The notes under the pieces were generated by a model. It made no database searches and was not told where the DNA came from. It saw only the letters and a list, made by a program, of their open reading frames with translations. Below are positions 1 through 59,059 of a stretch of 64,000 nt of DNA, piece after piece; within the stretch, counting starts at the first letter, position 1, and each line of letters opens with the position of its first letter. The stretch is taken from NCBI GenBank assembly GCA_022801925.1, contig JAAWTG010000003.1:20611-84610 (forward strand), written 5' to 3'. The position numbers were made by a program, and so were the translations under genes. This DNA is from Clostridia bacterium (GTDB lineage Bacteria > Bacillota > Clostridia > RUG12999).

Positions 1-1467
1 TACCGGACGATTCAGGTTTCCGGCATAGCAAAAAGTTCGCATACGATTACGGATAAATTGGGCGGAGAAGCGATAGAACTGGATCCGAAAAACATTGATT
101 ATGACGTTATTTTGGAAAAAGACGGTCAGCCTGCGACGTTTGAGTCCATTGAAGTGGACGACATCATTTCCTATGCGGCGTCGTCGGGCAACAAAAAGGG
201 CGTCAAATACGGTATCATTTCTTCCCAAACAGTCACAGGCACTTTGGCGGCAGTTGCGGAGGACAGCGTGACTATCGGCGAGACGGAATATCCGGTTGAC
301 AAGACGCTGCAAGGCAGTCTTTCCGCCGGAGAAGAAGGGGAATTTTATCTGGATTTTAAAGGACGAATTGTTGCGAAAAAGAGCGCGGTAGATGTGGTCT
401 ACGGTTATTTGAACGATTTATATATGGACAATTTCGGGTCGGTGCAGGCACAGATTTTTACGGAAAACGACCATTGGGTAATTTTGAATTTGAACGAAAA
501 AGTAAAATTCAACGGCGCGGGCGGATATCCTTGTAAATCGTTTTATCTGTATTGCACGGAGGAACTGGAGGACTATCGTCAGTTGGTTACCTATACGGTA
601 AGCGACGAGAGAAAGATCAACCGCATTGACTTTGCGCAAAGTTTTGCGGAATATTCGGACGAAGAAGAACGGGCAATTGACGAAAATATCTTCCGGCTGT
701 CACATGCAGAGTCCATGGCGAATTACCGTTCCGGTATGAAAAGTTTTGACAATGCAATCATGCTCAAAGATGATACACGGATTTTCATGGTACCAAGTCA
801 GGAAAAAGGAACGAAAGCAGATTTAGATGATTTTTATATCATAAAGCCGGCGACTTTGGAAGCGGATAAAAAATATTATAATATCAGCGGATACGATATG
901 GATCGGTCGCGGTATGCCAAGGTATGTCTTTTGGTAGGCAACACAATATCCATTGACAAAATGGGCAGCATCATGATTGTGGACAGCATTGGCAAAGGCG
1001 TAGGCACAGACGGCGTTGAAGTGGACGTCATAGCCGGAATGTATAAGGGCGCTATGGTAAAAGTCTATACAAAGGATAAAGAACTGCTGAAAGGTTTTCC
1101 CACGCTTGACAAAGGAGACGTCATTCAATTTTCATTAGATGCGAGCGGCAGTGTTTGCAGGATAGATTTGTGCTATGACTATACGAAAGGAACGCTGCCG
1201 TCTGAAATCTTGACAGGAAATTTATATGGCAGAGGGACGTTCATTGGCGGCGAAGTCTATTATACAGATTATCAAAATCAAAGATTGCTGTTAAACAGCG
1301 GCAGCGGAAAAGCGGTACTTTATACAAATGCCGGCACCAAAGTATATATCTATGACACGCAAACAGAAGAATTTAGCAGCGGAGAATTTTCCGATATCGA
1401 AAAAGGCGGCTATGTGTTTATCAAAACAAATTATTATCGGGCGGACGAAATTATAATATACCGGTAA
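1..1467 (+). CDS. Cell-surface protein, C-terminal part. The CDS enters from upstream of the window (frame 1 is open from base 1; the TTG at 58 is only the first in-window start). Paralog of the C-terminal region of the SLH protein at 51401-54046.
   Basis: Open frame from position 1 with no upstream stop. Colinear similarity to the 881-aa SLH protein, for example VPSQE/ISGYDMDRSRYAKVCLLV against VPETA/ISGYEQQSAYIAELVVIT, and similar C-terminal beta-rich tails. Confidence 0.55.
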   Translation, partial: YRTIQVSGIAKSSHTITDKLGGEAIELDPKNIDYDVILEKDGQPATFESIEVDDIISYAASSGNKKGVKYGIISSQTVTGTLAAVAEDSVTIGETEYPVDKTLQGSLSAGEEGEFYLDFKGRIVAKKSAVDVVYGYLNDLYMDNFGSVQAQIFTENDHWVILNLNEKVKFNGAGGYPCKSFYLYCTEELEDYRQLVTYTVSDERKINRIDFAQSFAEYSDEEERAIDENIFRLSHAESMANYRSGMKSFDNAIMLKDDTRIFMVPSQEKGTKADLDDFYIIKPATLEADKKYYNISGYDMDRSRYAKVCLLVGNTISIDKMGSIMIVDSIGKGVGTDGVEVDVIAGMYKGAMVKVYTKDKELLKGFPTLDKGDVIQFSLDASGSVCRIDLCYDYTKGTLPSEILTGNLYGRGTFIGGEVYYTDYQNQRLLLNSGSGKAVLYTNAGTKVYIYDTQTEEFSSGEFSDIEKGGYVFIKTNYYRADEIIIYR

Positions 1468-1494
1468 GGGGAAACGCCGCTATATATGCGCGTT

Positions 1495-1518
1495 GCAGCA
1501 TTGCAGCATTGCAGCATA
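1495..1518. repeat. Tandem 8-mer repeat gcagcatt x3
   Basis: gcagcattgcagcattgcagcata read directly, just downstream of the stop of the first CDS. Confidence 0.6.
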
Positions 1519-1540
1519 GTTAAAAATCAAATGTATATTT

Positions 1541-1588
1541 CAAACGCCGTTCTTGGGAAGCTGAGGACGGCGTTTGCCATGTTTTTTG
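1541..1588 (+). terminator. Rho-independent terminator of the upstream surface-protein gene
   Basis: 10-bp stem CAAACGCCGT/ACGGCGTTTG followed by a run of six Ts. Confidence 0.75.
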
Positions 1589-1627
1589 ATGATAATGGTT
1601 GGTATAAAAAAGAAATGTTTTTGAATA

Positions 1628-1656
1628 TTGACAAAGTCATAAAATATATGTAAAAT
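1628..1656 (+). promoter_or_regulatory. Sigma-A-type promoter (TTGACA-17-TAAAAT) for the phosphorelay operon
   Basis: Exact -35 hexamer, 17-nt spacer and an AT-rich -10 read in sequence. It sits about 180 nt upstream of the response-regulator ATG. Confidence 0.5.
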
Positions 1657-1837
1657 ATAAGTGACTCAGCAAATCGTAAAACGGTTGAAGACGTGGAGAA
1701 GCAGCGCAAGCCGGCGCAGGATTTGCTGCAATTGCAAGAGGGTTTTTCAATGCAAAATTTATGAAAATATGTGCGATGATACTATCTGTCAAAACAGGGC
1801 GGCGGAACGAAGATATTATGATAATGGAGAAGTGGCG

Positions 1838-2950
1838 ATGAAAAGAAGAGAGGCAGAGAACCAAACCACCGCAAAAAAAGGGATAATGTTGATTGTAGAC
1901 GACAATGAAATCAATAGAGCCATTTTGGAGGAAATATTTAAACGCGAATATGAAATTGAAGAAGCGGAAAATGGACAGGAATGTCTTGAAAAACTGTTTC
2001 AATATAAGGACAGCATTTGTGCAGTGCTCTTGGATATCATGATGCCGGTCATGGACGGACTGGAAGTTTTAAAAATTCTAAACAAAGACGGATTGCTGAC
2101 GCAGATACCGGTGTTTTTGATTACGGCGGAAACAGACAGCCGAACCATTCAGGAAAGTTATGAACTGGGCGTGATGGATATTATTAACAAGCCGGTCATT
2201 CCTTATTTGGTGCAGCGACGTGTGGATTCCGTGGTGGAATTGTTCGAGGCGCGGAAGCGGCTGAATAATATCGTAGCAATACAGCAATCGGAAATCAGCC
2301 ATCAGGCGCAAAAAATCATTGATTTGAATATGGGAATGATTGAGGCGCTTTCCACTGCAATTGAGTTCAGAAGCTGTGAATCGGGGACGCATGTACGGAG
2401 AATTCATGATATTACTTATTATATGCTGGTGCATACAAAGCTGGGAGACGGGCTGACAAAAGAGCAGATTGATTTGATTGCACTGGCAGCTGTGATGCAT
2501 GATGTGGGAAAAATTGCGGTGCCGGACGCAATTTTGAATAAGCCGGGCAAGCTTACGGCTGAAGAGTATGAGATGATAAAAACGCATACGACACAAGGGG
2601 CAAAACTGCTGGAACAAATACCGCAGATGAGAATGCATGAAACCTATGGGTATGCGCATGATATTGCGCTGCATCATCATGAGAGATGGGATGGCGGCGG
2701 ATATCCGGAGGGGCTGAAGGGGAACGAGATTTCTATTTGGGCGCAGATTGTTTCACTGGCGGACGTATATGATGCGCTGGTGAACAAGCGTGTATATAAG
2801 GAAGCGTTTGCCTATGAAAAAGCGCTGGAAATGATTCAGGAGGGACAGTGCGGTCAATTCAATCCGAAGTTGCTTGAACTGTTTGTGCAGTGCGAACCGG
2901 AAATCAGAAAATTCTATGAACAATCAAATGAGGTGACGAACTATGGATAG
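1838..2950 (+). CDS. Two-component response regulator with an HD-GYP c-di-GMP phosphodiesterase output domain
   Basis: REC domain (IMLIVDDNEINR...LLDIMMPVMDG) followed by HD-GYP motifs (HDVGK, HHHERWDGGGYP). The start is chosen at the ATG preceded by GGAGAAG. The long upstream ORF extension (1661) lacks an RBS. Confidence 0.85.
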   Translation: MKRREAENQTTAKKGIMLIVDDNEINRAILEEIFKREYEIEEAENGQECLEKLFQYKDSICAVLLDIMMPVMDGLEVLKILNKDGLLTQIPVFLITAETDSRTIQESYELGVMDIINKPVIPYLVQRRVDSVVELFEARKRLNNIVAIQQSEISHQAQKIIDLNMGMIEALSTAIEFRSCESGTHVRRIHDITYYMLVHTKLGDGLTKEQIDLIALAAVMHDVGKIAVPDAILNKPGKLTAEEYEMIKTHTTQGAKLLEQIPQMRMHETYGYAHDIALHHHERWDGGGYPEGLKGNEISIWAQIVSLADVYDALVNKRVYKEAFAYEKALEMIQEGQCGQFNPKLLELFVQCEPEIRKFYEQSNEVTNYG

Positions 2951-3293
2951 TGTACGGAAACAGAAACTGGAAGAATCCGGCATTGATGTGGACAGCGGCA
3001 TGGCGCGGTTCATGGGAAATGAAGCGCTTTATGAAAAGTTTTTGAAAAAATTTTGCGACGATATAAGCTATGCGGACTTGGTGCAGGCGGTCGCAGACGG
3101 AGACTGTGAAAAAGCGTTTGTTGCCGCGCACACATTAAAAGGCGTTTGCGGAAACCTTTCCATGACAACGCTGGAACAGCTTGTGAGCCGCCAGGTGGAA
3201 TATTTGCGCAGCGGAGAACTTGTACCGGCGGCGGATATGATGCCGGAGATAACAGCTGCATATGAAGATATTATCCACGTTATTGGGAGATGA
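2943..3293 (+). CDS. Hpt (histidine phosphotransfer) domain protein
   Basis: HTLKGVCGNL matches the HxxKG Hpt signature. Its start overlaps the response-regulator stop, indicating translational coupling. Confidence 0.75.
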   Translation: MDSVRKQKLEESGIDVDSGMARFMGNEALYEKFLKKFCDDISYADLVQAVADGDCEKAFVAAHTLKGVCGNLSMTTLEQLVSRQVEYLRSGELVPAADMMPEITAAYEDIIHVIGR

Positions 3294-3323
3294 TAAAAAG
3301 CGGCAAATAGAAGGAGAATGGTG

Positions 3324-5861
3324 ATGGTAAAAAATACGATAGGTTTTTTGAAAATTAGTCTGATTACGATATTGGCGTTATGCATTGGAGTATTTTTATG
3401 CATGACAAACTATATGGTTCGGCAGAGTGACAAGGCAATTAACGACATCGGAGAAATATATATGTCGGCGATGAGTGCCCAACTCAAAATACATTTTGAG
3501 TCCATCATAGATTTGCGGCTTTCACAGGTGGAAGGAATTGTTGAGAGAACACCAACGAATACGGTTACATATGGCGATGAAATGTTGGAAGAATTGACAA
3601 TCAGTGCAGAAGTGCGCGGTTTTACGCATTTAGGGTTGTATCGTGCGGAAGATGGCATTGAATTAATTTATGGAGATGAGTTAGAACTACCGAATGCAGC
3701 GCCGTTTTTTGCATCGCTAAATCATGGAGATGAAAAAGTGGCAACAGCACATGCAAAATCAAGTGAAGACACGTTGCTTTTGGGAATTCCTGCCGATTAT
3801 CCTATGAGAGATGGAAGAAAGAGTACGGCATTAGTTGTTGGAATTCCGCTGAATTATATCAACGAGGCAATGGAACTGGATGTCGGCAATGCGGAGGTAC
3901 ATTCGCATATCATCCAAAAAACCGGAGATTATGTTTTACGTTCTTCTGAAAATGAAGGAACAAGCTATTATGAATATTTAGAAAAGAGTATAATGGAGAG
4001 TGGACAGTCGGGACCGGAAGAAATAAAACGATTGCAGGAAACGCTGCAGACGGGAAACAATTATTCAACGGTTGTTACCATCAGCGGAGAAGAACGTCAC
4101 ATTTATGTCACAGATTTGCCAAACAGTGAGTGGTATATGGTAACGGTTATGCCATATGGTGATTTGGATGCAACCGTTACAAGACTGGGAGACCAACGTA
4201 TCTATTCCACGTTAATCGGAAGCGCAATTATGCTGCTGGCATTACTTAGTGTATTTTTTATCTATTTCAGACTGACGCAGCGGCAGCTGAAAGAACTGGA
4301 AGAAGCGAGAAAACAAGCGGAACGGGCAAATTTGGCGAAAAGTGAGTTTTTGTCAAATATGAGTCACGATATCCGTACGCCGATGAATGCGATTATGGGT
4401 ATGACAGCGATTGCGACAGAAAATATGGATGACGCGGAACGGGTAGCGGATTGTTTGAAAAAGATTTCCGTGTCCGGCAAACACCTTCTGGGGTTGATTA
4501 ATGATGTGCTGGATATGTCAAAAATAGAAAGCGGTAAAATGACATTGAATATCTCTAGGATTTCTCTGAGGGATACAATGGATTCTATTGTGAATATTGT
4601 CCAGCCGCAGGTGAAAGAAAAAAATCAGACGTTTGACATCTTTATCCGCAACGTGATTACGGAAAATGTTTTTTGTGATGGTGTGCGGCTGAATCAGGTG
4701 TTGATTAATATTTTAGGAAATGCAGTGAAATATACACCGGAAGAGGGAGAAGTTCATGTCACCTTTGATCAGGAAGCATCACCAAAGGGAGATGACTATG
4801 TCAGGGTACATTTTCGAATCAAAGATACCGGAATGGGTATGACGCCGGAGTTTTGTAAAAAAATTTTTGATTCCTTTTCACGTGAAGACAGCACCAGAGT
4901 GCAGAAAACAGAAGGAACCGGTCTGGGTATGGCAATCACAAAATATATTGTAGATAAGATGGAAGGCACCATAGAAGTTACAAGTGAACTGAATCAGGGA
5001 AGCGAATTTCATGTTATTTTAGATTTGGAAAAAGCGTCTGAAAAAGAAGAAGATATGCAGCTCCCGGATTGGAAAATGCTGGTGGTAGACGACAATGAAT
5101 TGTTCGGTCAAAGCGCGGTTGATTCACTGAAAGAAATTGGCGTGAGGGCAGAATGGGTAGACGATGGTTTGAAGGCAATTGAAATGGTGAAAGAATGCCA
5201 CAGCCGGCAGGAGGATTATAATATTGTGTTGCTGGACTGGAAGATGCCCGGCATGAACGGCATTGAAACAGCGCGGAAGATACGTAGCCTTGTTGGAGAA
5301 AATGTTCCAATTCTTTTGATTTCTGCCTATGACTGGAGCGAATTTAAAGAGGATGCGTGTGCAGCGGGAATCACTGGTTTCATATCAAAACCGTTATTTA
5401 AATCCACGTTGTATTATGGTCTGAAAAAATTTGTCTGTGACGGAGCGGAAAGTGACGAGATACTGCAAGATGAGACGAAAGACTATACAGGAAATCGGAT
5501 TTTGTTGGCGGAAGATAATGATTTGAACTGGGAGATTGCAAATGAATTGCTGTCCGCTTTTGGTTTTGAAGTGAAGTGGGCGGAAAACGGAAAATTGTGT
5601 GTAGAGGAATTTTGTCAGTCGGCACCAGGATATTATGATGTTGTGCTAATGGACTTAAGAATGCCTGTTATGAATGGTTATGAAGCGGCAAGCGCTATTC
5701 GCGAGACGGAACGGGAGGACTGTGATATTCCGATTATTGCCATGACGGCGGACGCTTTTGCGGAGGATATTCAACGTTGTCTGGACTGTGGAATGAACGC
5801 GCATGTATCCAAGCCAATCGATATGAACGAATTGTTGCATACTTTGGAGAAGTATATCTAA
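3324..5861 (+). CDS. Hybrid sensor histidine kinase with an extracellular sensor domain, HisKA/HATPase core and two C-terminal receiver domains
   Basis: N-terminal TM helix, periplasmic domain and second TM helix. H-box SNMSHDIRTPMNAI, HATPase G-boxes, then two REC domains (MLVVDDNELF...LLDWKMPGMNG and ILLAEDNDLN...LMDLRMPVMNG). RBS AAGGAGA is 6 nt before the ATG at 3324. Confidence 0.9.
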   Translation: MVKNTIGFLKISLITILALCIGVFLCMTNYMVRQSDKAINDIGEIYMSAMSAQLKIHFESIIDLRLSQVEGIVERTPTNTVTYGDEMLEELTISAEVRGFTHLGLYRAEDGIELIYGDELELPNAAPFFASLNHGDEKVATAHAKSSEDTLLLGIPADYPMRDGRKSTALVVGIPLNYINEAMELDVGNAEVHSHIIQKTGDYVLRSSENEGTSYYEYLEKSIMESGQSGPEEIKRLQETLQTGNNYSTVVTISGEERHIYVTDLPNSEWYMVTVMPYGDLDATVTRLGDQRIYSTLIGSAIMLLALLSVFFIYFRLTQRQLKELEEARKQAERANLAKSEFLSNMSHDIRTPMNAIMGMTAIATENMDDAERVADCLKKISVSGKHLLGLINDVLDMSKIESGKMTLNISRISLRDTMDSIVNIVQPQVKEKNQTFDIFIRNVITENVFCDGVRLNQVLINILGNAVKYTPEEGEVHVTFDQEASPKGDDYVRVHFRIKDTGMGMTPEFCKKIFDSFSREDSTRVQKTEGTGLGMAITKYIVDKMEGTIEVTSELNQGSEFHVILDLEKASEKEEDMQLPDWKMLVVDDNELFGQSAVDSLKEIGVRAEWVDDGLKAIEMVKECHSRQEDYNIVLLDWKMPGMNGIETARKIRSLVGENVPILLISAYDWSEFKEDACAAGITGFISKPLFKSTLYYGLKKFVCDGAESDEILQDETKDYTGNRILLAEDNDLNWEIANELLSAFGFEVKWAENGKLCVEEFCQSAPGYYDVVLMDLRMPVMNGYEAASAIRETEREDCDIPIIAMTADAFAEDIQRCLDCGMNAHVSKPIDMNELLHTLEKYI

Positions 5862-5914
5862 TAAAAAATAGTGGCAGAAAATATAAATATATGGTATCGT
5901 CTAAGTAGCAGAAA

Positions 5915-5958
5915 GAAAAAATGCACCGTTCTCTATTGAGAACGGTGCATTTTTGATA
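5915..5958. terminator. Bidirectional rho-independent terminator between the convergent kinase and ABC-transporter genes
   Basis: Perfect hairpin AAATGCACCGTTCTC/GAGAACGGTGCATTT with T-runs on both strands. Confidence 0.75.
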
Positions 5959-6016
5959 GAATTTATAACGAAAAATCTTCTTATAAGCCTATATAAAGTG
6001 GTCTAGAAAGTATGGG

Positions 6017-18196: not shown

Positions 18197-20191
18197 TTGA
18201 AACGGAAGTCATATACGTCAATTACTGCTAATTATTCGTGGGTTTATTTGCTTGTTTTGTTTTTGTTTGCCTGTGTGCTGCTGGCTTTAAGGCAATTTGG
18301 ATTGGGCATTGCGGGCATTGCTATAGGCATTTTGTTGACGATTGTCACTGTTTTGGTGGAAACAAACCGAAAGAAAAACCTGTTTGAATATGTGCAGCAG
18401 TTATCGTTTCATGTGCATTCCATGTCAAGAGACTCTTTGTTGAAATTCCCCATGCCGCTGACGATTATTGACCAGAACGGCAGGATTATCTGGTATAACA
18501 AACAGTGTGCGGAGATTTTTGAAGACAACATTTTTGACCAGGATATCAATGAAGTGCTGGGAACAGATTTGGACATTGAACAATTTGTGAATCAGGTGAA
18601 ACTCTCAGCGCGTATAGAATATAAAAAGCGGTATTATAATCTCATGGCAAACGTTTCGGATGAAATGCCGGACAACACGACTGTGATTTTGTATTGGGTG
18701 GACGAGACGGAAGAAATTTTAATGAAACAAGAATATGAAAATTCCCGTCCGGTTATCTGTCAGCTAAGCATTGACAATTATGATGAAATCATGCAAAATA
18801 CAGATGAAATTCAACGTCCTATGTTTGCGGCAACCATCGAAAAAAAGATTCATGAATGGGTGGCAAAAAATAAAGGAATTATCCGTAAAATGCAGAGAGA
18901 TAAATATACGGTTATTATGGAAAAACGGTTTCTGGAAGAAAATGCGCGGGGGAAATTCCCGTTTTTAAATGAAATGCGCGACTTGCAGGAAGGCAATAAA
19001 ATGCCAATTACCATCAGTCTTGGAATTGGCGTTGGGGCGGACTTGCCGGACAACGACAGCTATGCAAACAGCGCCTTTGACATGGCGCTGGGACGCGGCG
19101 GCGACCAAGTGGTGATTAAAGATAGGAATAAATTCACGTATTTCGGCGGCAACAGTGCGGAACAGGAAACGCATACGCGTGTGAAAACGCGCGTCATGGC
19201 ATATGCGCTCAAACAACTGATTCAGCAAGCGGAAAAAGTGGTGCTGATGGGACACAAAAATGCGGATTTGGACGCAATTGGCGCGGCAATCGGGCTGTAT
19301 AGCAGCATACGGCATATGGATAAGCCTGTCTATATTGTAACGGAGACGCAAAATAAATCGACGCTCAAGCTGCTGGAGCGCGCCAACCGATATGAAGAAT
19401 TCCGCGGCGCCCTGATAGATTATGAAAAAGCCAAAGAAGTGGTAGATGATGATACGCTGCTGATTGTGGTAGATGTGTATCGTGCGTCCATCACAGAATG
19501 CCCGCAATTGCTGGAGGTGGCGGGAGATGTTGTGGTACTGGATCACCACAGAAAAAGTGCGGAATTTATTGAAGATACAACGCTGGTATACCATGAGCCG
19601 TTTACATCGTCTACTTGTGAAATGGTGACGGAACTGCTGCAATATATTGACGACGGCGCCCATATTGCGCCGATTGTAGCGGAAGCACTGTATGCAGGTA
19701 TCGTGATGGACACCAAAAACTTTGTGTTTAAGTCCGGCGTTCGTACCTTTGAAGCCGCGGCATACCTGCGGCGGCGCGGCGTGGATACGCTGCACATCAA
19801 ACAACTGTTTCAGGACGACCGGCAGGTCTATATTCAAAAGCTGGCGGTGGTCAAAGCGGCGTTTATGTACAGAGATGGAATTGCCATATCGCGCCTGAAA
19901 GAAAAAACGGAAGATACCACAATGGTGGCGGCAGTGGCGGCAGATGAAATGCTGGGCATGGAAGGCGTTGCCGCATCGTTTGTGTTATCCGAAGTGGAAG
20001 GCGGTATTCATATCAGCGGGCGTTCGCTCGGCGCGGTGAATGTGCAGGTGATTTTGGAGCGTATCGGCGGCGGCGGACATATCACGCTGGCGGCAGCGAA
20101 AATAAATGGAAACATGAAACAAGCGGAAGAAACGTTAAAACAAGCAATTGATGAATATTTTGACGATACAGCAGAGGAGGAAGAGGAATGA
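18197..20191 (+). CDS. gdpP: c-di-AMP phosphodiesterase GdpP (2 TM helices, PAS, degenerate GGDEF, DHH/DHHA1 domains)
   Basis: DHH motifs ([16 protein letters not shown]), GGGGH in DHHA1, and the conserved operon context. Confidence 0.85.
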
Positions 20192-36622: not shown

Positions 36623-38527
36623 CTACTGCCTATGCTCTTTTAAAAATTTTTTCGCCTCCTTCAGCGGCAAAGCGCGGGAATAGTAAAATCCTTGAATGAG
36701 GTCGCAGTCGGTGCTTAGTACCATTTTATTATGTTCTTCCGTTTCGACACCCTCGCATAGAACGGTGATATTCATGCTGTGTGCCAAGCGAATAAGTCCG
36801 TCCAGCAACATTTTTCCGCGGCTGTCCATAGCGTTTAGAACAATGTCCCGTTCCACTTTCACGTAATCTATTGGATAATGATAGAGGTCAGATAGAGAGG
36901 AATAGCCGCTTCCGATATCATCCAAAGCGATTAGAAATCCAAGCGCCTTACATTTTTGCAGATTTTCCTGCAAAAGTTTCGGATTGTGTGACCGGGAATC
37001 TTCTGTAACCTCAATGATAAGGTGACTGTGGAGAAAAGCGTAACGTTCAGCAATTTCTTTGATATGGTTTGAAAAATCCGGTGCAGTAATGGAATAGCGG
37101 GTGAAATTACAGGATATAAACATATGACCCAAACCGTCCTGTTCCCATTTCGCCAGTTGTTTACATACCTGCGAAAAAATATAGTAATCGTGCGCTGTTA
37201 CAGCGCCGGTTTGGTTCATGAGTTCAATATATTTTGACGGCGGCAGCAATCCTTCTTGCGGATTTTGCCATCTGGATACCGCTTCTGCGCCGTATATTTC
37301 ACCTTTTCGGTTGACAATATATTGCAGATATAACTGAAATTCACCGTCCTTGATTGCCTGCGTGATACGGTGATGCAGGCGTTCATTCTGATGTGTTTCC
37401 GCGACGAGGGTTTGCGTGCTGAAAGAAAAGTTCAGTTTGTGACCCACTGCGTGGAGATATCCTTGTTTTGCGTTGTAGAAAGCGGATTCGCTGTCACAGT
37501 CCATGTTTTCTTCCAGCGCACAAACGCCGGCGGAAAAGAGATTCGTATATTCACTTTTGAATTGACTAAGATAGACGTCCAGTTCGTCCATGATACGCTT
37601 GATTCGTTCTTCTGCCTTTGGTTTATTGCTGCTTTGATAGAGAAAAGCAAACACGCCGGCATTTACCAATGCAAGATATTCTGCGGCGCCGGTTTTTTGA
37701 TTTAAAAATGCTGCCACATACTGCTGAACCGTTTGGGTTTCGCTTCCGCCGTACCGCCGGTTGAAGGTTTCTTCATCAAAGGAAATATAGGCAAGATAGT
37801 ATAGACTTTTGCTTTTATCGGAAATAAGATTGTCGTAGCAATAAATGTAATATTTATCATTTCCGATACCATATTGGGGATGTATCATCAGGTCGTCTTG
37901 CGCAGCTTTCCGCTTTCTCCCAAAATGGATTGCCAGCACCGTCGCTGTCAGCAAAACAACTGATAAAATACCACCTAAAACATATACAAACAATATATGG
38001 ATTCGGTTCACGCCGCCGTATTCCCTTGTATAGGACGAGAGAAACGTAAGTTTTTGTTCCGCAGATATCTCGGAAAACGCAGCGGAAACCTTTGATACGA
38101 TTTCTTCAGAGGCAATGTTAGAAAATGCAAAACAGACCCGCCGCTCTCTGCCGTCAATCGTAATGTTGGAAACGAACTGCGGCGTCTTTATATACTGCTC
38201 GTCAATCGCTTCCTCCAAATAGGCGGATATGATATCTGCCTGCCCGTTTTTTGCCAGACGCGCCTGTGCATGGGGACTGCTATCCTCCAAATACTGAAAA
38301 GTATAACCGGTTTTTTCAGAAATCACCGCATAAAGCTGCGGCATGAGACCGGCAAACTGTCCGCTCTTATCGTCATAATATTCTATCGGATACATATCGG
38401 TGTTTCCTGCCACATAAACGGTGGATTCTGAAGCAAACGAATGAACAGCAGCAAGAAACATAGAAAGCACGATAATACAGATATAGATACATATGGTTCT
38501 GACGAGCCCCATGTTACGGTTGTTCAT
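36623..38527 (-). CDS. Membrane-anchored sensor protein with a periplasmic domain, a degenerate GGDEF-like region and an EAL c-di-GMP phosphodiesterase domain
   Basis: C-terminal EAL motifs (LIALDDIGSGYSSL, DYVKVERDIV, QGFYYSRALP). Start chosen at MNNRNMG, which has a GGTGGA RBS. The longer ORF extension overlaps the upstream gene out of frame. Confidence 0.8.
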   Translation of the reverse strand: MNNRNMGLVRTICIYICIIVLSMFLAAVHSFASESTVYVAGNTDMYPIEYYDDKSGQFAGLMPQLYAVISEKTGYTFQYLEDSSPHAQARLAKNGQADIISAYLEEAIDEQYIKTPQFVSNITIDGRERRVCFAFSNIASEEIVSKVSAAFSEISAEQKLTFLSSYTREYGGVNRIHILFVYVLGGILSVVLLTATVLAIHFGRKRKAAQDDLMIHPQYGIGNDKYYIYCYDNLISDKSKSLYYLAYISFDEETFNRRYGGSETQTVQQYVAAFLNQKTGAAEYLALVNAGVFAFLYQSSNKPKAEERIKRIMDELDVYLSQFKSEYTNLFSAGVCALEENMDCDSESAFYNAKQGYLHAVGHKLNFSFSTQTLVAETHQNERLHHRITQAIKDGEFQLYLQYIVNRKGEIYGAEAVSRWQNPQEGLLPPSKYIELMNQTGAVTAHDYYIFSQVCKQLAKWEQDGLGHMFISCNFTRYSITAPDFSNHIKEIAERYAFLHSHLIIEVTEDSRSHNPKLLQENLQKCKALGFLIALDDIGSGYSSLSDLYHYPIDYVKVERDIVLNAMDSRGKMLLDGLIRLAHSMNITVLCEGVETEEHNKMVLSTDCDLIQGFYYSRALPLKEAKKFLKEHRQ

Positions 38528-39008
38528 TTTGACATCCACCCTTTTCAATCTTTTTTCGAGTGACCGGAGAAAAGTGTTGCGGTTCTGAAAGCACCTCACT
38601 TTTCTCAGACAAATTATCACCCAATATATCAAGTAATTGCTGAATGCTATCGCGTACATCATGGATACCGGCACTGCATTCACGGATTCGTTTTTGCAGT
38701 TCATGGGCGCATTCCAGATTTTTTTCCAGAAACTTTGCATTTTCAGCATTTGCTTTTTGCTTCAATTCTACTGCATACATTTTTGCATCGGTCAACACTT
38801 CCGCCACACGGTCGCGTTCTGCATAAAAAGCTGCGTTTTCCTGCTCAAGCCGTGCAATTTTTTTATTGAATTCCTGCACTGCCTGTTCGTGTGCTGTTAT
38901 GGTATCCATCATTTTCAGGGAAAATTTTTCGTTCATTTTTGCGATATATTCACATATATCGCTTTTTTTATATCCCCAAAATCCCTTTTTCAAACGTGTA
39001 ATATCCAT
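38514..39008 (-). CDS. DivIVA-domain coiled-coil protein (GpsB/DivIVA-like)
   Basis: N-terminal LKKGFWGYKKSDICEYIAKM matches the DivIVA N-terminal pattern (K.F..RGY...EV..FL..V), and the rest is coiled coil. RBS GGAAAGGAGA. Confidence 0.6.
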   Translation of the reverse strand: MDITRLKKGFWGYKKSDICEYIAKMNEKFSLKMMDTITAHEQAVQEFNKKIARLEQENAAFYAERDRVAEVLTDAKMYAVELKQKANAENAKFLEKNLECAHELQKRIRECSAGIHDVRDSIQQLLDILGDNLSEKSEVLSEPQHFSPVTRKKIEKGGCQNEQP

Positions 39009-39054
39009 AAAAATCTCCTTTCCGATTTTTCGGTATCATAGCCGGACACGCTTT

Positions 39055-40458
39055 TTAATGCAACTTGATTTTTTTGCGTTCAATACGACCCCATTGTGTT
39101 TTCTTTTTGCGATAGCCAATAAATGCGGTGGAGCGTACCCAAGCAAGGATAAACCGCAGACAGGTTAATTCAAAGAAACATAGTAAGACAGCCTTGACAC
39201 CGTCTATAAATGAAATTTTCATATCTGTTGTATAGAGGCGTGAGAAGAATGCCGAAAGCGAGAGGATGGAACTGAATCCGGCATATATCAGGAAAAACAG
39301 AATCATAAACGGAACATGCAATAAACCGGTTGCCCACGCCAAAAGCATAGTGATAACGCCAAATATTTCAATAAACGGTGAAAACAACTCATAAATCAAA
39401 AAGTATAAATAGGATATGAAACTGACTGCACCGAATTTGGGATTGGAAAACATTTTACGGTGCGCAAACATGCTTTGAAACAATCCCAAATGCCATCTTT
39501 TACGCTGGCGGCACAAATCACGCAAGTTTTCGGGTACTTGTGTCCAGCAGATGGCATCGCTGGCATATCGAATACTGTAGTTGATATGGTTCATGGTACA
39601 ATATTCATGCAACTTGACCACCAATTCCATATCCTCGCCGATTGTTTCATTGCTATAACCGCCCGCCGCTATGACTGTCTCTTTTTTGAACAGTCCGAAC
39701 GCACCGGAAATGATAAGAGAACCGTTGAATTTATCAAACAGAATTCTGGACGCCAAAAAAGAACGGGCATATTCTAAAACTTGCATACAAGCCAAGATAT
39801 TACGCGGCATACTATATTTTTTGAGCCGTCCGTTTTCCAGTTCGACTGCATTGGAAATGCGCACCATACCGCCGACGGCAACCACATTATCATTTTCCAG
39901 AACAGGTTGTGCAATGCGGCGCAGGGAGTCATATTGCAGAAAAGAATCGGCGTCAATACAAATAAAATACGGAAATGTGGAGGCATTAATACCCATATTC
40001 AGCGCGTCTGCTTTTCCGCCGTTTCGTTTACGAATGAGCGTCAGCGGTACCTTTTGCAAGCGGGACTCATAGACAAATTCTTCCGGCTGACAGGGAAGTT
40101 GCCGGCGTATCGGACAGTGAACGGGGCGCATGTCAAACGCTTCAATTAACTTTTTGGACATATTGTCTGTGGAACCGTCGTCTACTACAATAATCTCATA
40201 GGAGCGATATTCAAGCTGCAAAAGAGATTTGACGTTTTCCACCACAGTAATTTCTTCATTATAGGCAGGTACGATAATGGTAATCGGAACATAATAGTCC
40301 TGCGGGAGAATGTTTTTCATCAACTCACGCCGACGGAGTTTATACAGTTCAAGAGAGCCGACAACAAGCGAGATAAAAAGGAAGGTTGAATATCCAATGA
40401 GATAGGCGATAAAGAAATAGCCGGTCCAATCCAAGAATACTTTAAGCGTGTCTAACAT
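39055..40458 (-). CDS. Processive family-2 glycosyltransferase / polysaccharide synthase (PgaC/IcaA/NodC/HasA-like)
   Basis: N-terminal TM pair, DDGSTDN, DAD, QRKRW (QxxRW) motif, and 3-4 C-terminal TM helices. The start overlaps the upstream gene's stop (ATGTTAG). Confidence 0.85.
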   Translation of the reverse strand: MLDTLKVFLDWTGYFFIAYLIGYSTFLFISLVVGSLELYKLRRRELMKNILPQDYYVPITIIVPAYNEEITVVENVKSLLQLEYRSYEIIVVDDGSTDNMSKKLIEAFDMRPVHCPIRRQLPCQPEEFVYESRLQKVPLTLIRKRNGGKADALNMGINASTFPYFICIDADSFLQYDSLRRIAQPVLENDNVVAVGGMVRISNAVELENGRLKKYSMPRNILACMQVLEYARSFLASRILFDKFNGSLIISGAFGLFKKETVIAAGGYSNETIGEDMELVVKLHEYCTMNHINYSIRYASDAICWTQVPENLRDLCRQRKRWHLGLFQSMFAHRKMFSNPKFGAVSFISYLYFLIYELFSPFIEIFGVITMLLAWATGLLHVPFMILFFLIYAGFSSILSLSAFFSRLYTTDMKISFIDGVKAVLLCFFELTCLRFILAWVRSTAFIGYRKKKTQWGRIERKKIKLH

Positions 40459-41570
40459 ATGGATGCATCCTCCTTTTCTGCGCGTATCATATCACGAACA
40501 TCAAAATGGTACCGGAGAATTTCGGAGGCGTAGCGGTCATGTCCTTCCAAAACATCAATCAAATCCAGATAAGTCAATCCCAGCCGTTCAAGACTTTGCG
40601 CGGAATTGAACCGGATATGCCAGTTGCGGTGATGTAAATTTGATTTTAAAATTTCCACTGTTTTCTCTGCAGGGTAGGAAGCCAAAACAGAAGATGCTAT
40701 AGCGGCATATTCCCAGCGCATATCGGTTCTGCTGTTCGCATAAAGCAATAAATATTCATATGCCGGTTCATAGCGGTATTTACCGAAATAGCGAATACAG
40801 GCAAACCGGAGTTCATCGTCCTGCGATGTATCCTTCATAAGCCGCAGGATATCTTCGCAATGGTCTCCTGAGCTAAAGCGGAAATAGTTCAGCAGCGTGA
40901 TTTGCATCTTACGCGAGAAATCCTCAAATGTTTCCCAAAGTGCAGCGTTGAGTCGTTGCGTATTACCTGCGAAATTTAATAATCCATCCGCCAACAGTTT
41001 GCTATGATAGACTTTATTTTCATTGTCTATGATTTTTAATGCTTTTACAATGCAAGAAGCGTCTCTGGTAGTATAGAGCGCCTGCATAGCGTTTTCCCTG
41101 CAATAGATGCTCGGTTCATGGAGAAGCCGGAACAACATATCAATCATAGCGTCAAACGGACGGTCTGCCAAAATTCTATATTTTTTGATGATATATGGGA
41201 AATATGCCGCTTCCATAGAATCTTTTTTGCAATATTCGATAGAAAGAGATACAAACACACTGCCAATGGAATAGAGATATTTTCGGACAAGCATTGGATT
41301 TTCAAGATGTTTTTTTTCAAGCGCTGCATCAAAAGCACGCATGTTGCTGATGCGTTTGAGTTTTCCGGAAAGATAGTTTTTGTGTGCGCTGTGCACAGCA
41401 CTGTGCGTTTCCAGCCATATCAGTTCACTGCGGATCCTGTCCTCAAAACCATTGCTGACCCGAAGAATCCTTTTGTCCCTGCGGCGGGAGAGGAATGCAC
41501 TGATGATATTAAATAAAATCATGCCAACGCATATGACAAGATAGACATAAATCATTTTTTCTATGTTCAT
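40452..41570 (-). CDS. Hypothetical membrane-anchored alpha-helical repeat protein (HEAT/TPR-like), unknown function
   Basis: Single N-terminal TM helix followed by about 330 aa of predicted helical repeats. RBS GAAAGGG before MNIEKM. Translationally coupled to the GT2 gene. Confidence 0.5.
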   Translation of the reverse strand: MNIEKMIYVYLVICVGMILFNIISAFLSRRRDKRILRVSNGFEDRIRSELIWLETHSAVHSAHKNYLSGKLKRISNMRAFDAALEKKHLENPMLVRKYLYSIGSVFVSLSIEYCKKDSMEAAYFPYIIKKYRILADRPFDAMIDMLFRLLHEPSIYCRENAMQALYTTRDASCIVKALKIIDNENKVYHSKLLADGLLNFAGNTQRLNAALWETFEDFSRKMQITLLNYFRFSSGDHCEDILRLMKDTSQDDELRFACIRYFGKYRYEPAYEYLLLYANSRTDMRWEYAAIASSVLASYPAEKTVEILKSNLHHRNWHIRFNSAQSLERLGLTYLDLIDVLEGHDRYASEILRYHFDVRDMIRAEKEDASIC

Positions 41571-41593
41571 TGTGAGAACCCTTTCTTTTGGTG

Positions 41594-41660
41594 AGACAAA
41601 CAAAAGTCGAATCTCATGCGGTCACTGCATGGCGCAACCATATTCGACTTTCGTTTGCCT
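41594..41660 (-). repeat. Intra-operon hairpin / short repeat copy (AAAGTCGAAT...ATTCGACTTT followed by a T-rich run), between the glycoside-hydrolase and helical-repeat genes
   Basis: 10-bp stem with a nested CATGC..GCATG stem. On the minus strand it is followed by TTTTGTTTGTCTC. The 27-nt 3' half recurs at 47497-47525 and a variant at 6017-6037. Confidence 0.45.
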
Positions 41661-41672
41661 ATCCGCGTACTG

Positions 41673-43844
41673 CTATGACCATAATTGTTGCAGCATATAA
41701 TAGGAACTTTTCAGGCGTTCATGATAGCTTATCTGGTTGCCCCAGCCTTTCAGTTTGAAAGAGGAGAACGGTATCCGACCGCCGGAATTACCATCTGTCA
41801 GTGCGAAATACAGTTCATTGATTTTGATATAGTCTATACCGTAGTTGCCGCTGTAATAATCATCATGAATCATCATACGAGACGGATCGGAGAAATTCAA
41901 AAGCTGCCACGGCAGTTTCAGTTCAATATAGTCTCCACTGCAGATATAGTCGGCGAGAGAGTCAAACGCCGGACTAGACGGATTGGCGTTGCCATATTTG
42001 AGTTTTCCGGTCTCAAAGACCTCTGAGTTTGCCAAATTATCGTTATAGAGAAGTACCGTAGCGGTTTGCAGAATCATCTGAATCGGCAGGAAACGTGGCG
42101 AGTCAATATCAGGTATGTTGCTTGCGATATAAGTATCAAAATCATAAGCTTGCAGTGCATAGGTTGAACGCAGCGATTCATAACGTTCCTGCACCAAAAC
42201 ACGGCTGTTTTCTCTGCCGTGCAGCACAATTAAAAAATCTGCTGCACGGTCTAATAAAAGATTTTGTTCCTTGCAATAAAGGCTGCCGCTTTTGGGCGTG
42301 ATATCCAAAGGAATATAAAGCGTATCGGTTTCGAGGTTGAGGTTCGGTTTGTGAATCAGGAAATAGAGGAACCGCTCATCATATTTTACAGAAAGGGACA
42401 TGCCGCCGTTTTGGACGACCAAATCCGATTCTGTCCATTCAGAAATATCTCCGTCCACATAGCAAACAGATTTTTCGGCGCCAGGGTCAAAGGATAATAA
42501 GCCAAAATATTGCTCGTTGGTCTGATAGTCCGACCAATAGGGCGTTCTTGTCAAATCCACTGCATACATCGTATTCCAGGTGCGTTTGAACCATTCATCC
42601 TGCCACGAAAATACACAGCAGCCGGCACAACCTGCCGCCATAATATCCTCATAACAGTCGATAAGCGCTTGACCCTGTTCCTGTTCGGACATGTTGCCCT
42701 GATTTCTTCCGGTGTTTGCATCCCTTTGCGCCATTCCGCGTCCGGTGGAAACGCCGAACTCCGAAATAACCACGGGCATGGTATGATGGGTTGTGAGCAT
42801 GGCAAGATAGGCGCGGTAGGTGCTGAGTTGCCCTTTTGCATTGATATATGCCGATTTATCTGCGATTCCAAACGGTGACCAATCGTCAATATAGGTGAGG
42901 TAGTCGGGATAATAGGGATATACATGGTAGGAGGCAAATTGTCCGGCAAGAAATGTGTCATAGGTTTTAATATGTTCCGCATTCACATAGGCACATTTCA
43001 TAAAGAAATTTTTGATTCGTTCAGGATATTCAAAAGGATCAGTGGTCGGCCAGTTGGAAAAGGCAATGAGTTTTTGCGTTTTATAGCGGCAAGATTCATA
43101 TTCAACCACTTTGTCGCCGACTTTACAAAGCAGCGTTTCAAAGGGAGAGGCGTCCTGCGTGGTATACATATATTTCCCTTGATAAGAGGTATAACCGTCT
43201 TTGCCCGCGTAAAGATCGTCTGTATAAGCAACCGTAAGGTCTTCCCACTCCACGCCCAAAATATAACCGATGACCCAAGAAGAGACGTCTTTTAGATAAC
43301 TGCCGGAACCGGCGCTTGATACACTATTCAGCGCAATTTTTTTATTGCCGTGTACGGCATCCAGCATAGTTTTGCAATCATTTAAAAAAGTATCATAAAA
43401 TTCCTTACTATAGGCATCGCGGTGGGAATTTTGTATGTAGTCGTTGACCCATACGCCGTGAATCAAATAGAGTGGGTCAGGATTGTTTTTATTATATTCG
43501 TAAAACGCCTTGTAAAAAACGTCCTGTTGAATGGTATAGATACGAATCGTGTTGGCGCCCATTTCTTTGATATATTGAAACCAGCGAAGATAGGTTTCTT
43601 TGTCGATTGCAAAATCGGTAGACCATGCGCCCGGCGCGCCGGAGCCAAGATTCACACCACGAATCTCAAAGGGTTCATACCCGTTTCCCTTGTCCATATA
43701 TATTTTATCGCCATCTGTTTTGACAAAGGTGGTAACTGCTTTGGCAGGCTGAAAATCAATATACCATCCGAGCCGGAAATAAATGGCGTCATAGACCAGA
43801 GCCAATGCTACAACAGATGACAAAATGATTAAAAACTTTTTCAT
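41673..43844 (-). CDS. Secreted glycoside hydrolase-like protein (TIM-barrel clan GH-A type, candidate exopolysaccharide hydrolase)
   Basis: Signal/anchor sequence, GVNLG...IKEMGANTIRIY, and a candidate nucleophile motif VVISEFG. 723 aa. Confidence 0.5.
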   Translation of the reverse strand: MKKFLIILSSVVALALVYDAIYFRLGWYIDFQPAKAVTTFVKTDGDKIYMDKGNGYEPFEIRGVNLGSGAPGAWSTDFAIDKETYLRWFQYIKEMGANTIRIYTIQQDVFYKAFYEYNKNNPDPLYLIHGVWVNDYIQNSHRDAYSKEFYDTFLNDCKTMLDAVHGNKKIALNSVSSAGSGSYLKDVSSWVIGYILGVEWEDLTVAYTDDLYAGKDGYTSYQGKYMYTTQDASPFETLLCKVGDKVVEYESCRYKTQKLIAFSNWPTTDPFEYPERIKNFFMKCAYVNAEHIKTYDTFLAGQFASYHVYPYYPDYLTYIDDWSPFGIADKSAYINAKGQLSTYRAYLAMLTTHHTMPVVISEFGVSTGRGMAQRDANTGRNQGNMSEQEQGQALIDCYEDIMAAGCAGCCVFSWQDEWFKRTWNTMYAVDLTRTPYWSDYQTNEQYFGLLSFDPGAEKSVCYVDGDISEWTESDLVVQNGGMSLSVKYDERFLYFLIHKPNLNLETDTLYIPLDITPKSGSLYCKEQNLLLDRAADFLIVLHGRENSRVLVQERYESLRSTYALQAYDFDTYIASNIPDIDSPRFLPIQMILQTATVLLYNDNLANSEVFETGKLKYGNANPSSPAFDSLADYICSGDYIELKLPWQLLNFSDPSRMMIHDDYYSGNYGIDYIKINELYFALTDGNSGGRIPFSSFKLKGWGNQISYHERLKSSYYMLQQLWS

Positions 43845-43865
43845 GAATCCTCCTAATGAAACTAC

Positions 43866-45341
43866 TTAGTTTGCGTTTTCGTTAAACTTTTTCACCTTTG
43901 ACCCAGCGGAATATTGCGTGATAGATTCTATGTTTTCATCCAGCCAGGAGCCTCTATACGAAATAAACCACTTGAGCTGCGCAAGACTTTCTTCATAGGA
44001 ACGTGGATTGCGTTCGATAGGTTTTAGCAAATCATGACTTTCTTCAAAGGAATACCCCCATTTTTCATAGTTTCGCGCTATCGCGGCACCTAAATACTCT
44101 ACAGTGCTGTCAATATAACGGCAAAGATAGTCCTCGCTGAGATAGGTTTGACGAAGTTCATGATAACGCTTGACACAACGTTTTGTAAAGTTTTCATCTT
44201 TTGTCAGCATAAAGTACCACAAACAATTTTGAAGTTCAAAATGTCCGGGCTGCATCATAGATTGCTGATAGTTGTCACAGGCAGAGTTAAAATCCCAAAT
44301 ACACATGCGGAACTTGCCGTCGATATCTTTATACATATAAGTGGATAACCAGCCGGCGTCGTAGTTACAGGTAAACTCATTTATGAGAAGATAGTCTACA
44401 AAAGAATCTACATCAATCAATTTTTCATACCCATATTGGTTATTGTCGTAATCATAGGAATAGAGTGATTTTTCAAAAGCGGAAAAATCTTGTTTGATTC
44501 CTTCCAATATTTTGGGCGTTAGATTGGGAGCGCCGGGATATACAATTTCCAATTTCAGATTTGTGCGGAGCGTATAGGTGGTAAAACTTTTCAGATGGTT
44601 CTGTTCCTCGTTGTCCGGACGGTCAAGTAACAATACATAGCCGGTAAAGGTATTATCTTTTGCATCGACAGTCAGATTTAGGCGACTTCCGTTTTTGCCT
44701 GCCGTAATGTTTTCAACCAATACATAAACGCCCATATATTCACCATCAAGGAGCAATTCACAAAAGCGTACATTGGGAGCGTAGTCCATAATCTCGCCGG
44801 CAATATTATACCACATATAATTACGAAGCAGTGTCTTGTCCAAAATCGGACCGTGCAGCACCCATTCATGATGGGCGGTCATTCCGATTAGACTTTGTGG
44901 ATTGTTTCCTCCTTTTTCATCAATCAGATTGATGCGATAGCCCAATTTATCATAGGTACGCGAGGAATTGCCGCGTACATGAATGGATATATCGCTGGTA
45001 ACAGCAGGAACATCAGTGGGATGGTTGTTGGTTGTTTTATTATCAAACACCGACAGCTTGGCACGGATTCGGTCGCTACCGTCAGCCGCGGTTGTATATC
45101 CGGTCGTTTTACCTTCTTCCACGATTGCCCTTCCGGGTATTTCCACACCGCCTGTATGAATGGTTATCAACGGTAAATGTGTGCAGAAGGTATTGTCCGT
45201 ATGGGGGCATGGTTGTTTCGGCTCTGCCTCCAAATGTTGATGATAGCGTCCGGTATCCGCAGTCAATAAAAGAGGCAAATTTATCGCAGAAATGAGCAGC
45301 ATGAGTGCACAGGCAATGATACCCCAAACTTTGTATTTCAT
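43866..45341 (-). CDS. CotH-family protein (atypical kinase fold), secreted or membrane-anchored
   Basis: N-terminal hydrophobic segment. 491 aa with CotH-like conserved blocks (RGNSSRTYDKLGYRINL, HEWVLHGP, YVLVENI). Sits in a CotH-DUF4956-VTC context. Confidence 0.6.
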   Translation of the reverse strand: MKYKVWGIIACALMLLISAINLPLLLTADTGRYHQHLEAEPKQPCPHTDNTFCTHLPLITIHTGGVEIPGRAIVEEGKTTGYTTAADGSDRIRAKLSVFDNKTTNNHPTDVPAVTSDISIHVRGNSSRTYDKLGYRINLIDEKGGNNPQSLIGMTAHHEWVLHGPILDKTLLRNYMWYNIAGEIMDYAPNVRFCELLLDGEYMGVYVLVENITAGKNGSRLNLTVDAKDNTFTGYVLLLDRPDNEEQNHLKSFTTYTLRTNLKLEIVYPGAPNLTPKILEGIKQDFSAFEKSLYSYDYDNNQYGYEKLIDVDSFVDYLLINEFTCNYDAGWLSTYMYKDIDGKFRMCIWDFNSACDNYQQSMMQPGHFELQNCLWYFMLTKDENFTKRCVKRYHELRQTYLSEDYLCRYIDSTVEYLGAAIARNYEKWGYSFEESHDLLKPIERNPRSYEESLAQLKWFISYRGSWLDENIESITQYSAGSKVKKFNENAN

Positions 45342-45375
45342 CTATTTACCTCCTGCATTGTTTTTTGAACATGGT

Positions 45376-46053: not shown

Positions 46054-46067
46054 ATATTGATAACTCC

Positions 46068-46822: not shown

Positions 46823-46829
46823 CAATCAT

Positions 46830-54046: not shown

Positions 54047-54066
54047 TAAAAGGGAGGATACGGCAA

Positions 54067-59046: not shown

Positions 59047-59059
59047 GGGAGGCGAAACC

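Follow-up and report, generated by a model that had tools for sequence, protein, structure and literature searches.

In the RpfC/RpfG system of Xanthomonas, which serves the sensing of the diffusible signal factor (DSF), phosphoryl groups pass from a hybrid histidine kinase through a receiver (REC) domain and a histidine phosphotransfer (Hpt) domain to a REC-HD-GYP response regulator that degrades cyclic di-GMP (c-di-GMP). The ShkA-ShpA-TacA pathway of Caulobacter combines a hybrid kinase of the layout DHp-CA-REC1-REC2 (DHp, dimerisation and histidine phosphotransfer; CA, catalytic and ATP-binding) with a partner Hpt protein, and ShkA signals through ShpA to TacA (PMC6969517). In Vibrio furnissii, the membrane-bound dCache_1 kinase AsrK controls AsrR, a REC-HD-GYP c-di-GMP phosphodiesterase encoded by the adjacent gene (PMC11796354). 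Here we analyse a three-gene cassette (positions 1838-5861, + strand, from open reading frame (ORF) calls and Pfam matches) in a 64-kb stretch of a contig of an uncultured Clostridia bacterium, hereafter the window. The cassette encodes a REC-HD-GYP regulator, a stand-alone Hpt protein and a membrane-bound hybrid kinase with two receivers. With a probability of about 0.78, we read it from its sequence as one operon for a multistep His-Asp-His-Asp phosphorelay whose output is a c-di-GMP phosphodiesterase.

The regulator, the Hpt protein and the hybrid kinase of an RpfC/RpfG-type system are thus all present and syntenic in the window, whereas phosphotransfer between them is predicted only. All coordinates below are positions in the window, and kinase residues are counted from the start codon at 3318.

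Domains and residues of the three proteins

The original prediction described three adjacent genes for a regulator, an Hpt protein and a hybrid kinase, and ORFs of exactly this kind were found on the + strand. The first of them (1838-2950) encodes a response regulator of 370 amino acids (aa) with Pfam matches to Response_reg (78 bits) and HD_5 (117 bits). Its REC domain covers residues 17-133 approximately, with Asp66 as phospho-acceptor, and the HD-GYP domain follows at about residues 157-352. The nearest NCBIfam model is that of a REC-c-di-GMP-phosphodiesterase, which the regulator matches below the equivalog cut-off. In a phmmer comparison, the HD-GYP domain aligned over about 190 residues with PmGH (4mcw, E 9e-39) and PA4781 (4r8z, E 9e-38), the closest solved structures; the V. 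cholerae cGAMP phosphodiesterase V-cGAP3 (5z7c, E 5.8e-30) was the third match. Alignment with solved, active HD-GYP enzymes therefore bears out the output domain that had been proposed.

Since a degenerate catalytic site would leave such an output without an enzyme, the metal ligands were checked residue by residue. The set E181, H185, H221, D222, K225, H250, H280, H281, D309 and D312 is complete and identical to that of 4mcw, whose ligands we take to be E185, H189, H221, D222, H250, H276, H277, D305 and D308, consistent with the coordinates of the 4mcw chain. The GYP motif (HHExxDGxGYP) is likewise present and reads HHHERWDGGGYP. For a view of conservation, we aligned 65 regulators that are encoded next to an Hpt gene in public genomes. 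The ligands are invariant among them save for one change of E181 to D, and so are G288, Y289 and P290 of the GYP motif and the receiver quintet D21, D22, D66, T96 and K118. By its ligand set, the HD-GYP domain is of the tri-metal PmGH type and is predicted to be catalytically competent. The regulator most likely degrades c-di-GMP, because members of the family have GGDEF genes, EAL genes and c-di-GMP-I riboswitches as neighbours.

The second gene (2943-3293, + strand) encodes the stand-alone Hpt protein of 116 aa, which matches Pfam PF01627 with 37.3 bits against a cut-off of 24.6. The HTLKG motif on which the assignment had been based lies within AAHTLKGVCGNL and carries the phospho-histidine His63. 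This histidine, together with Lys66 and Gly67, is invariant in the 43 relatives over which conservation was scored, so the phosphorylatable residue is in place. A profile of the Hpt family matched the solved 116-aa Hpt chain 7c1i (E 1.9e-6) and CheA P1 domains, and His63 aligns with the histidine of both. About 200 relatives were found in the protein collection, all of them stand-alone and 114-133 aa long; where a source name is given, which is so for few, the label is Lachnospiraceae or Clostridium sp. metagenome-assembled genome (MAG).

The third gene (3318-5861, + strand, likely start 3324) encodes the hybrid histidine kinase, 847 aa long when counted from 3318. Pfam identified HisKA (68.5 bits), HATPase_c (94 bits) and two Response_reg stretches with a total of 154 bits. 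A first transmembrane helix (about residues 10-32) is followed by the sensor (about 33-295), a second transmembrane helix (about 296-318), the DHp domain with His350, the CA domain (about 454-571), REC1 and REC2, and the protein ends with REC2 at residue 843 of 847. NCBIfam places the kinase among hybrid kinases such as TorS, BarA, LuxQ and ArcB, again below the equivalog cut-offs; no named orthologue can therefore be given for the regulator or for the kinase. Across 11 kinase orthologues, the only departure from invariance in the H, N, G1, F and G2 boxes is a single F-to-Y substitution within the F box. Both receivers are intact. REC1 (5076-5432, + strand) holds Asp591, Asp592, Asp640, Ser669 and Lys691, REC2 (5499-5846, + strand) holds Glu732, Asp733, Asp779, Thr810 and Lys832, and both sets are complete and invariant in the same 11 orthologues.

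The extracytoplasmic sensor domain (3414-4202, + strand) escaped a confident assignment by sequence profiles. Pfam dCache_1 (PF02743) matched over its full length, but below threshold (21.9 bits with the whole protein and 24.5 with the sensor alone, against a cut-off of 45), although the same family was found at E<0.01 in four of nine kinase orthologues. A profile search of the PDB sequences with the sensor gave no match, and a homologue search with the sensor alone retrieved 11 proteins, mostly fragments. The AlphaFold model built from this shallow 11-sequence alignment reached a pLDDT (predicted local distance difference test) of 81.5 and consists of a long N-terminal helix, two alpha/beta modules and a C-terminal transmembrane helix. 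Among the Foldseek matches listed from the PDB, the top ones are almost all dCache ligand-binding domains, with E-values down to 3e-9, probability 1.0 and target-normalised TM-scores up to 0.69; they include Mlp37, Mlp24, PctA/B/C, TlpA, mmHK1S-Z2 and a Roseburia chemoreceptor. On the strength of the model and these matches, where Pfam had stayed below threshold, the sensor is by its modelled fold a divergent extracytoplasmic dCache domain. At the presumed position of the R-x-W-Y-like, amino-acid-binding motif of the dCache_1AA subclass, the sensor reads APFF by eye. Pfam, the structure model and the residue sets agree with the proposed sensor kinase with an extracellular sensor and two C-terminal receivers.

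All phospho-accepting, catalytic and metal-binding residues are present in the three proteins, and the claim of a complete parts list for a His-Asp-His-Asp relay ending in an HD-GYP domain stands. In the proposed mechanism, an extracellular ligand at the dCache sensor would set the balance between the kinase and phosphatase activities. The phosphoryl group would move from His350 to a receiver aspartate inside the kinase, most likely Asp779 of REC2, then to His63 of the Hpt protein and finally to Asp66 of the regulator. The phosphorylated REC domain would alter HD-GYP activity and thereby the cellular c-di-GMP level, of which an ON-type c-di-GMP-I riboswitch at 46.8 kb would be one likely reader. 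The individual phosphotransfer steps, the substrate, the sign of control and the link to the riboswitch operon are what we infer.

Gene organisation, receivers and alternative schemes

The organisation of the cassette agrees with the suggested co-transcription of its genes. The Hpt ATG (2943) precedes the end of the regulator gene, whose stop codon TAG occupies 2948-2950, giving an overlap of 8 nucleotides (nt), and a ribosome binding site (RBS), GAGGTG at 2930-2935, lies 7 nt upstream of this ATG. By this layout, translation of the Hpt gene is coupled to that of the regulator gene. The kinase RBS, GAAGGAG at 3310-3316, is 1 nt from the ATG at 3318 and 7 nt from that at 3324, and on a public contig of identical sequence the kinase gene was called from the position equal to 3324. 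Because of this spacing and the public call, 3324 is more likely to be the true start than 3318.

Upstream, a putative promoter-like site, TTGACA-17 nt-TAAAAT (1628-1656, + strand), matches the consensus at 11 of 12 positions and follows a terminator-like hairpin (1541-1576) predicted for the preceding surface-protein gene. No + strand terminator-like site was found inside the cassette. At its end stands a bidirectional intrinsic terminator (5922-5954, both strands; hairpin 5922-5949), which closes the cassette and also serves the convergent ABC-transporter genes; its 12-bp GC-rich stem and TATT loop are preceded by an A-run and followed by a T-run. Co-transcription of the three genes is therefore plausible.

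Between the promoter-like site and the regulator lies a leader of about 180 nt (1657-1837), which was considered as the seat of a hidden RNA element. A search of 1480-1900 gave no Rfam motif at E<=1. In the portions examined of an alignment with the loci L017, L018 and L004, little is conserved beyond the upstream terminator and the RBS/start region; the context of the regulator start codon, GGAGAAGTGGCGATG, is kept in L017 and L018. With Rfam blank and little conservation in close relatives, the idea was dropped. ORFs on the minus strand that overlap the cassette were treated as non-coding, because the + strand ORFs have strong domain matches and the GC skew is steadily positive, as it is throughout positions 1-6000.

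The gene that immediately precedes the cassette encodes a surface protein with surface-layer homology (SLH) domains. Very large SLH surface proteins are encoded at 58-1467 and 51401-62923 of the window and at 1-8525 of L001, and their further domains comprise Big_5, aBig_2, F5/8 type C, CBM96 and heparinase II/III. This domain content indicates a putative S-layer-anchored, glycan-degrading surface apparatus.

The cassette recurs in other genomes. A scan of GTDB, with one genome per species, detected a relative of the Hpt protein in 204 species genomes, and gene order was read in the best 80 of these 204 loci by tblastn with the window proteins, the denominators being the loci with enough flanking sequence (78, 65 and 63). 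The regulator gene is directly upstream of the Hpt gene in 62 of 78 loci and a hybrid kinase gene directly downstream in 31 of 65, while the full triad in the order of the window occurs in 26 of 63 loci and is the commonest single layout. Since the pair is so much more frequent than the triad, the regulator and the Hpt protein form the conserved core. This conserved gene order supports a shared pathway for the three predicted products. The closest relative is L017, from an uncultured Clostridia MAG, with an Hpt protein 85% identical and a kinase core 98% identical to those of the window. Where the best 80 loci carry labels beyond 'uncultured Clostridia', these are mostly Lachnospiraceae, Oscillospiraceae and similar, and the cassette family is largely restricted to gut Clostridia. 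Six cassette-bearing genomes (L070, L076, L078, L087, L089 and L037) are labelled Mailhella, Desulfovibrio, Desulfovibrionaceae or Bacteroides; these could be mis-binned MAG contigs or cases of horizontal transfer.

Two types of kinase accompany this Hpt family. Type B, that of the window, consists of a dCache sensor, transmembrane segment, DHp, CA, REC1 and REC2. Type A is about 840 aa long and has a dCache sensor, with significant Pfam dCache_1 matches in some members, a further conserved region that appears PAS-like when read by eye, and a single receiver. In four loci (L023, L065, L076 and L087) a type A and a type B kinase follow the regulator-Hpt pair in tandem, which suggests that several inputs can converge on one Hpt protein. 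Compared with the window kinase, the one receiver of type A shares 49-57% identity with REC2 and 27-33% with REC1. Mean identity among type B orthologues is also higher for REC2 (75%) than for REC1 (66%). As the only receiver of type A stands beside the same Hpt family and resembles REC2, and as REC2 is the more conserved of the two, REC2 is the likely phosphodonor to the Hpt protein. REC1, we infer, is an intact and lineage-specific addition of type B, which probably acts as a competing sink or an intramolecular regulator.

Other wirings of the same parts have to be weighed. It is possible, although we consider it rather doubtful, that the Hpt protein mainly integrates hybrid kinases encoded elsewhere and that the adjacent kinase is chiefly a phosphatase or sink acting through REC1 and REC2. 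It would then drain phosphate from the Hpt protein and the regulator when its ligand is present, in the manner described for the LuxQ/LuxU system. The partnership of two kinase types with one Hpt family, their tandem occurrence, the two intact receivers of the window kinase and the existence of Hpt-kinase pairs without a regulator and of regulator-Hpt pairs without a kinase would all fit such a branched network. The kinase nevertheless retains every autokinase motif and the triad of the window is the most frequent arrangement; besides, a network of this kind is compatible with the linear phosphorelay and not exclusive of it. At the output end, the HD-GYP domain might act on 3'3'-cyclic GMP-AMP (3'3'-cGAMP) or another nucleotide, or might serve mainly as a protein-interaction module. 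Substrate choice in HD-GYP domains is not fixed by sequence alone and V-cGAP3 is a significant match, but the best matches are the c-di-GMP-associated PmGH and PA4781 and the genes and riboswitches around the family belong to c-di-GMP signalling, while catalytic residues that vary once in 65 regulators argue for an enzyme over an adaptor. We therefore regard this option as improbable. The simplest scheme, in which the DHp domain phosphorylates the regulator REC domain directly and the Hpt protein and the kinase receivers are buffers or belong to another pathway, appears very improbable. Hybrid kinases pass the phosphoryl group to their own receiver first, and the Hpt gene is by its layout coupled in translation to the regulator gene, of which it is the most conserved neighbour, and encodes an invariant phospho-histidine. 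The only characterised pair of a dCache kinase and a REC-HD-GYP regulator that we found, AsrK-AsrR, is indeed a direct two-component system (PMC11796354), but AsrK is not described as a hybrid kinase and the terms 'hybrid' and 'Hpt' are absent from that report.

Several points count against the multistep phosphorelay that we favour. Every phosphotransfer step would rest on homology. Both kinase receivers are intact, and REC1, or both, could feed the Hpt protein. The regulator is missing beside the Hpt gene in 16 of 78 loci and an adjacent kinase in about half, and the Hpt family is therefore not bound to one fixed partner set. Some HD-GYP enzymes prefer 3'3'-cGAMP, V-cGAP3, the third PDB match, being such a case. 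The sign of control, too, is not predictable. Phosphorylation is reported to activate RpfG. It inhibits AsrR, however (PMC11796354), so that neither direction can be assumed here.

A riboswitch-controlled operon in the same window

The opposite strand of the window carries the presumed reader of c-di-GMP. The GEMM leader and the EAL protein named in the original prediction were both recovered: a c-di-GMP-I riboswitch aptamer (46810-46896, minus strand, 71 bits) and a 708-aa protein (36623-38749, minus strand) with an EAL domain of 194 bits. A terminator hairpin predicted by folding (46794-46823, minus strand) overlaps the aptamer. Because the 5' arm of this terminator sits inside the 3' strand of the aptamer and the ligand-free minimum-energy fold is the terminator, the riboswitch is a probable ON switch. 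It precedes an operon of eight genes (36623-46775, minus strand) for VTC, DUF4956, CotH, a 723-aa protein, a HEAT-repeat protein, a glycosyltransferase of family 2 (GT2), a 164-aa protein and the EAL protein. The 723-aa protein has a weak GH72-like match, the GT2 enzyme is of the processive type and the 164-aa protein is a coiled-coil protein. The EAL protein combines a weak match to periplasmic solute-binding proteins with a degenerate GGDEF domain and an EAL domain in which the catalytic motifs, on inspection, seem intact.

The operon resembles the NELoc-2 locus of Clostridium perfringens, in which genes for VTC, a 'tubulin/FtsZ-like' protein, CotH, a protein of about 700 aa, a HEAT-repeat protein and a GT2 'chitin synthase' follow in the same order (PMC2879425). 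By position and size, the 'tubulin/FtsZ-like' protein presumably corresponds to DUF4956. The function of NELoc-2 was unassigned when it was described (PMC2879425), and the available part of that description names neither an upstream riboswitch nor an adjacent phosphorelay. No functional study of an operon of this type was found in the literature searched.

In metagenomes, the VTC-CotH-GT2-EAL gene order is highly conserved across 27 lineages, and 52 of 80 operon loci cluster with L119. In this commonest gut lineage with the operon (L098, L119), no c-di-GMP-I riboswitch reached the gathering score upstream of VTC, and the leader may hold another riboswitch class or may have lost the element; such a match upstream of VTC was found in four other lineages (L100, L102, L122 and L124). 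In L052 (12957-15221), and with the same layout in L055, the DUF4956 and CotH genes of the riboswitch operon are replaced by a gene for a 754-aa protein with a C-terminal HD-GYP domain, for which no N-terminal domain was recognised in L052. L055 also carries a Gut-1 small RNA (354-428, minus strand; RF01706, 64 bits) beside a tRNA gene.

The cassette and the operon had been proposed to be functionally linked on the ground that the window is unusually rich in c-di-GMP turnover. This richness was not confirmed. The window holds one HD-GYP domain, one EAL protein with a degenerate GGDEF domain and one riboswitch, and tblastn revealed no further GGDEF, EAL, HD-GYP, REC or kinase-core genes in it, hence no intact GGDEF domain and no other two-component genes. 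Pfam searches with ten large ORFs of the window returned housekeeping genes, SLH surface proteins and GdpP. The latter, a GdpP-type c-di-AMP phosphodiesterase (GGDEF_GdpP, DHH and DHHA1 domains) encoded at 18197-20191 (+ strand) upstream of dnaB, is a cyclic-dinucleotide enzyme with a housekeeping role and no part in c-di-GMP turnover.

The proposed link itself fared better, as gene neighbourhoods in other genomes give it independent support, if in a minority of loci. In L012-L016 (one species in many samples) and L084, the cassette is fused downstream of the EAL gene of a homologous operon, so that the genes for DUF4956, CotH, a 741-aa protein, HEAT, GT2, a 163-aa protein and GGDEF/EAL run on, through overlapping stop and start codons, into those for the regulator, Hpt and kinase. 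The operon and the cassette of L059 diverge, with the riboswitch 244 nt from the regulator start and a GGDEF protein after the kinase. The order in L052 and L055 is regulator, Hpt, PAS-GGDEF, riboswitch and variant operon, and in L122 it is kinase, regulator, Hpt, riboswitch and VTC. In 8 of 80 loci, the gene directly preceding that of the regulator is an EAL gene. Because adjacency recurs in four different arrangements, a link between the cassette and riboswitch operons appears plausible from gene order.

The same survey also yields the arguments that detract from such a link. Adjacency to the operon is a minority state, seen in 4 of 80 species loci when counted from the Hpt side and in 1-2 of 27 lineages from the operon side. 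Under a binomial null in which every genome has one such operon and proximity arises by chance in 1% of genomes (an assumed figure), P is about 0.009 for four loci and about 0.05 with related loci merged. In the window, the two loci are 31 kb apart and on opposite strands.

It is tempting to speculate that the regulator-Hpt pair serves as the dedicated arm through which environmental signals enter a self-contained c-di-GMP circuit of gut Clostridia, running from one or two dCache kinases through a single Hpt protein and the HD-GYP regulator to the ON riboswitch and the NELoc-2-type operon, and we put this forward as a tentative proposal. In such a circuit the terminal EAL phosphodiesterase of the operon would provide built-in negative feedback, and REC1 would be a second, regulatory phospho-acceptor that tunes the flux. 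If the circuit exists, an uncharacterised operon, which is common in gut metagenomes and in C. perfringens forms a locus associated with strains from necrotic enteritis, would gain a regulator and a signal pathway. The link alone, if true, would mean that an extracellular ligand at a dCache kinase controls a surface-polymer programme through c-di-GMP in gut anaerobes.

Comparison with characterised systems

RpfC carries its Hpt domain at the C-terminus of the kinase itself, together with a single receiver and a multi-pass membrane domain for input. The cassette differs in its separate gene for a 116-aa Hpt protein, its two receivers, its dCache sensor and its host among Gram-positive gut Clostridia. 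Of the RpfC/RpfG system, only the receiver chain of RpfC (3m6m) came up as a PDB match.

The best solved match to the whole cytoplasmic part of the kinase is Caulobacter ShkA (6qrj, E 2.4e-55), which aligns end to end. In ShkA the relay runs through REC2 as phospho-acceptor, which is also the role predicted for REC2 of the window kinase. ShkA, with TacA as output, is a cytosolic protein, whereas the window kinase is membrane-bound and its predicted output is a phosphodiesterase. The two kinases also part in REC1, which in ShkA is a pseudo-receiver that binds c-di-GMP, with a DDR motif in the linker tethering REC2 (PMC6969517). At the acidic pair, ShkA REC1 has S255/P256 and the window kinase the invariant Asp591/Asp592. 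The c-di-GMP contacts R324, Y338, R344 and Q351 of ShkA align to S, F, F and a gap, and the DDR motif aligns to DET within a linker that is variable among orthologues. Feedback through the kinase by ShkA-like c-di-GMP binding to REC1 was therefore considered and rejected, REC1 being a canonical receiver with neither the contacts nor the DDR motif conserved.

The AsrK-AsrR pair is similar in its dCache sensor and its REC-HD-GYP output but lacks the intermediate steps: AsrK phosphorylates AsrR directly, and no Hpt protein or kinase receiver is described (PMC11796354). PmGH and PA4781 share with the regulator the aligned region of the HD-GYP domain, with its metal ligands and GYP motif conserved, but PmGH has a different N-terminal domain and the solved PA4781 chain (218 aa) is HD-GYP only. 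The literature searched contained neither a characterised regulator-Hpt-kinase system of the same layout nor an experimentally studied member of this Hpt family.

Both multistep phosphorelays and HD-GYP regulators are familiar, and the cassette itself will not surprise a specialist. What the present analysis adds is the definition of a recurrent family in Clostridia, a testable prediction of the relay receiver (REC2) in a dual-receiver hybrid kinase, and a lead on the regulation of a conserved riboswitch-gated CotH/GT2 operon homologous to NELoc-2. The cassette is of a known kind, for which RpfC/RpfG is the closest system in terms of output and ShkA-ShpA in terms of the kinase and Hpt layout. 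What sets it apart from the characterised examples is its separate Hpt protein, its second intact receiver, its dCache sensor and its membership of a family found largely in gut Clostridia.

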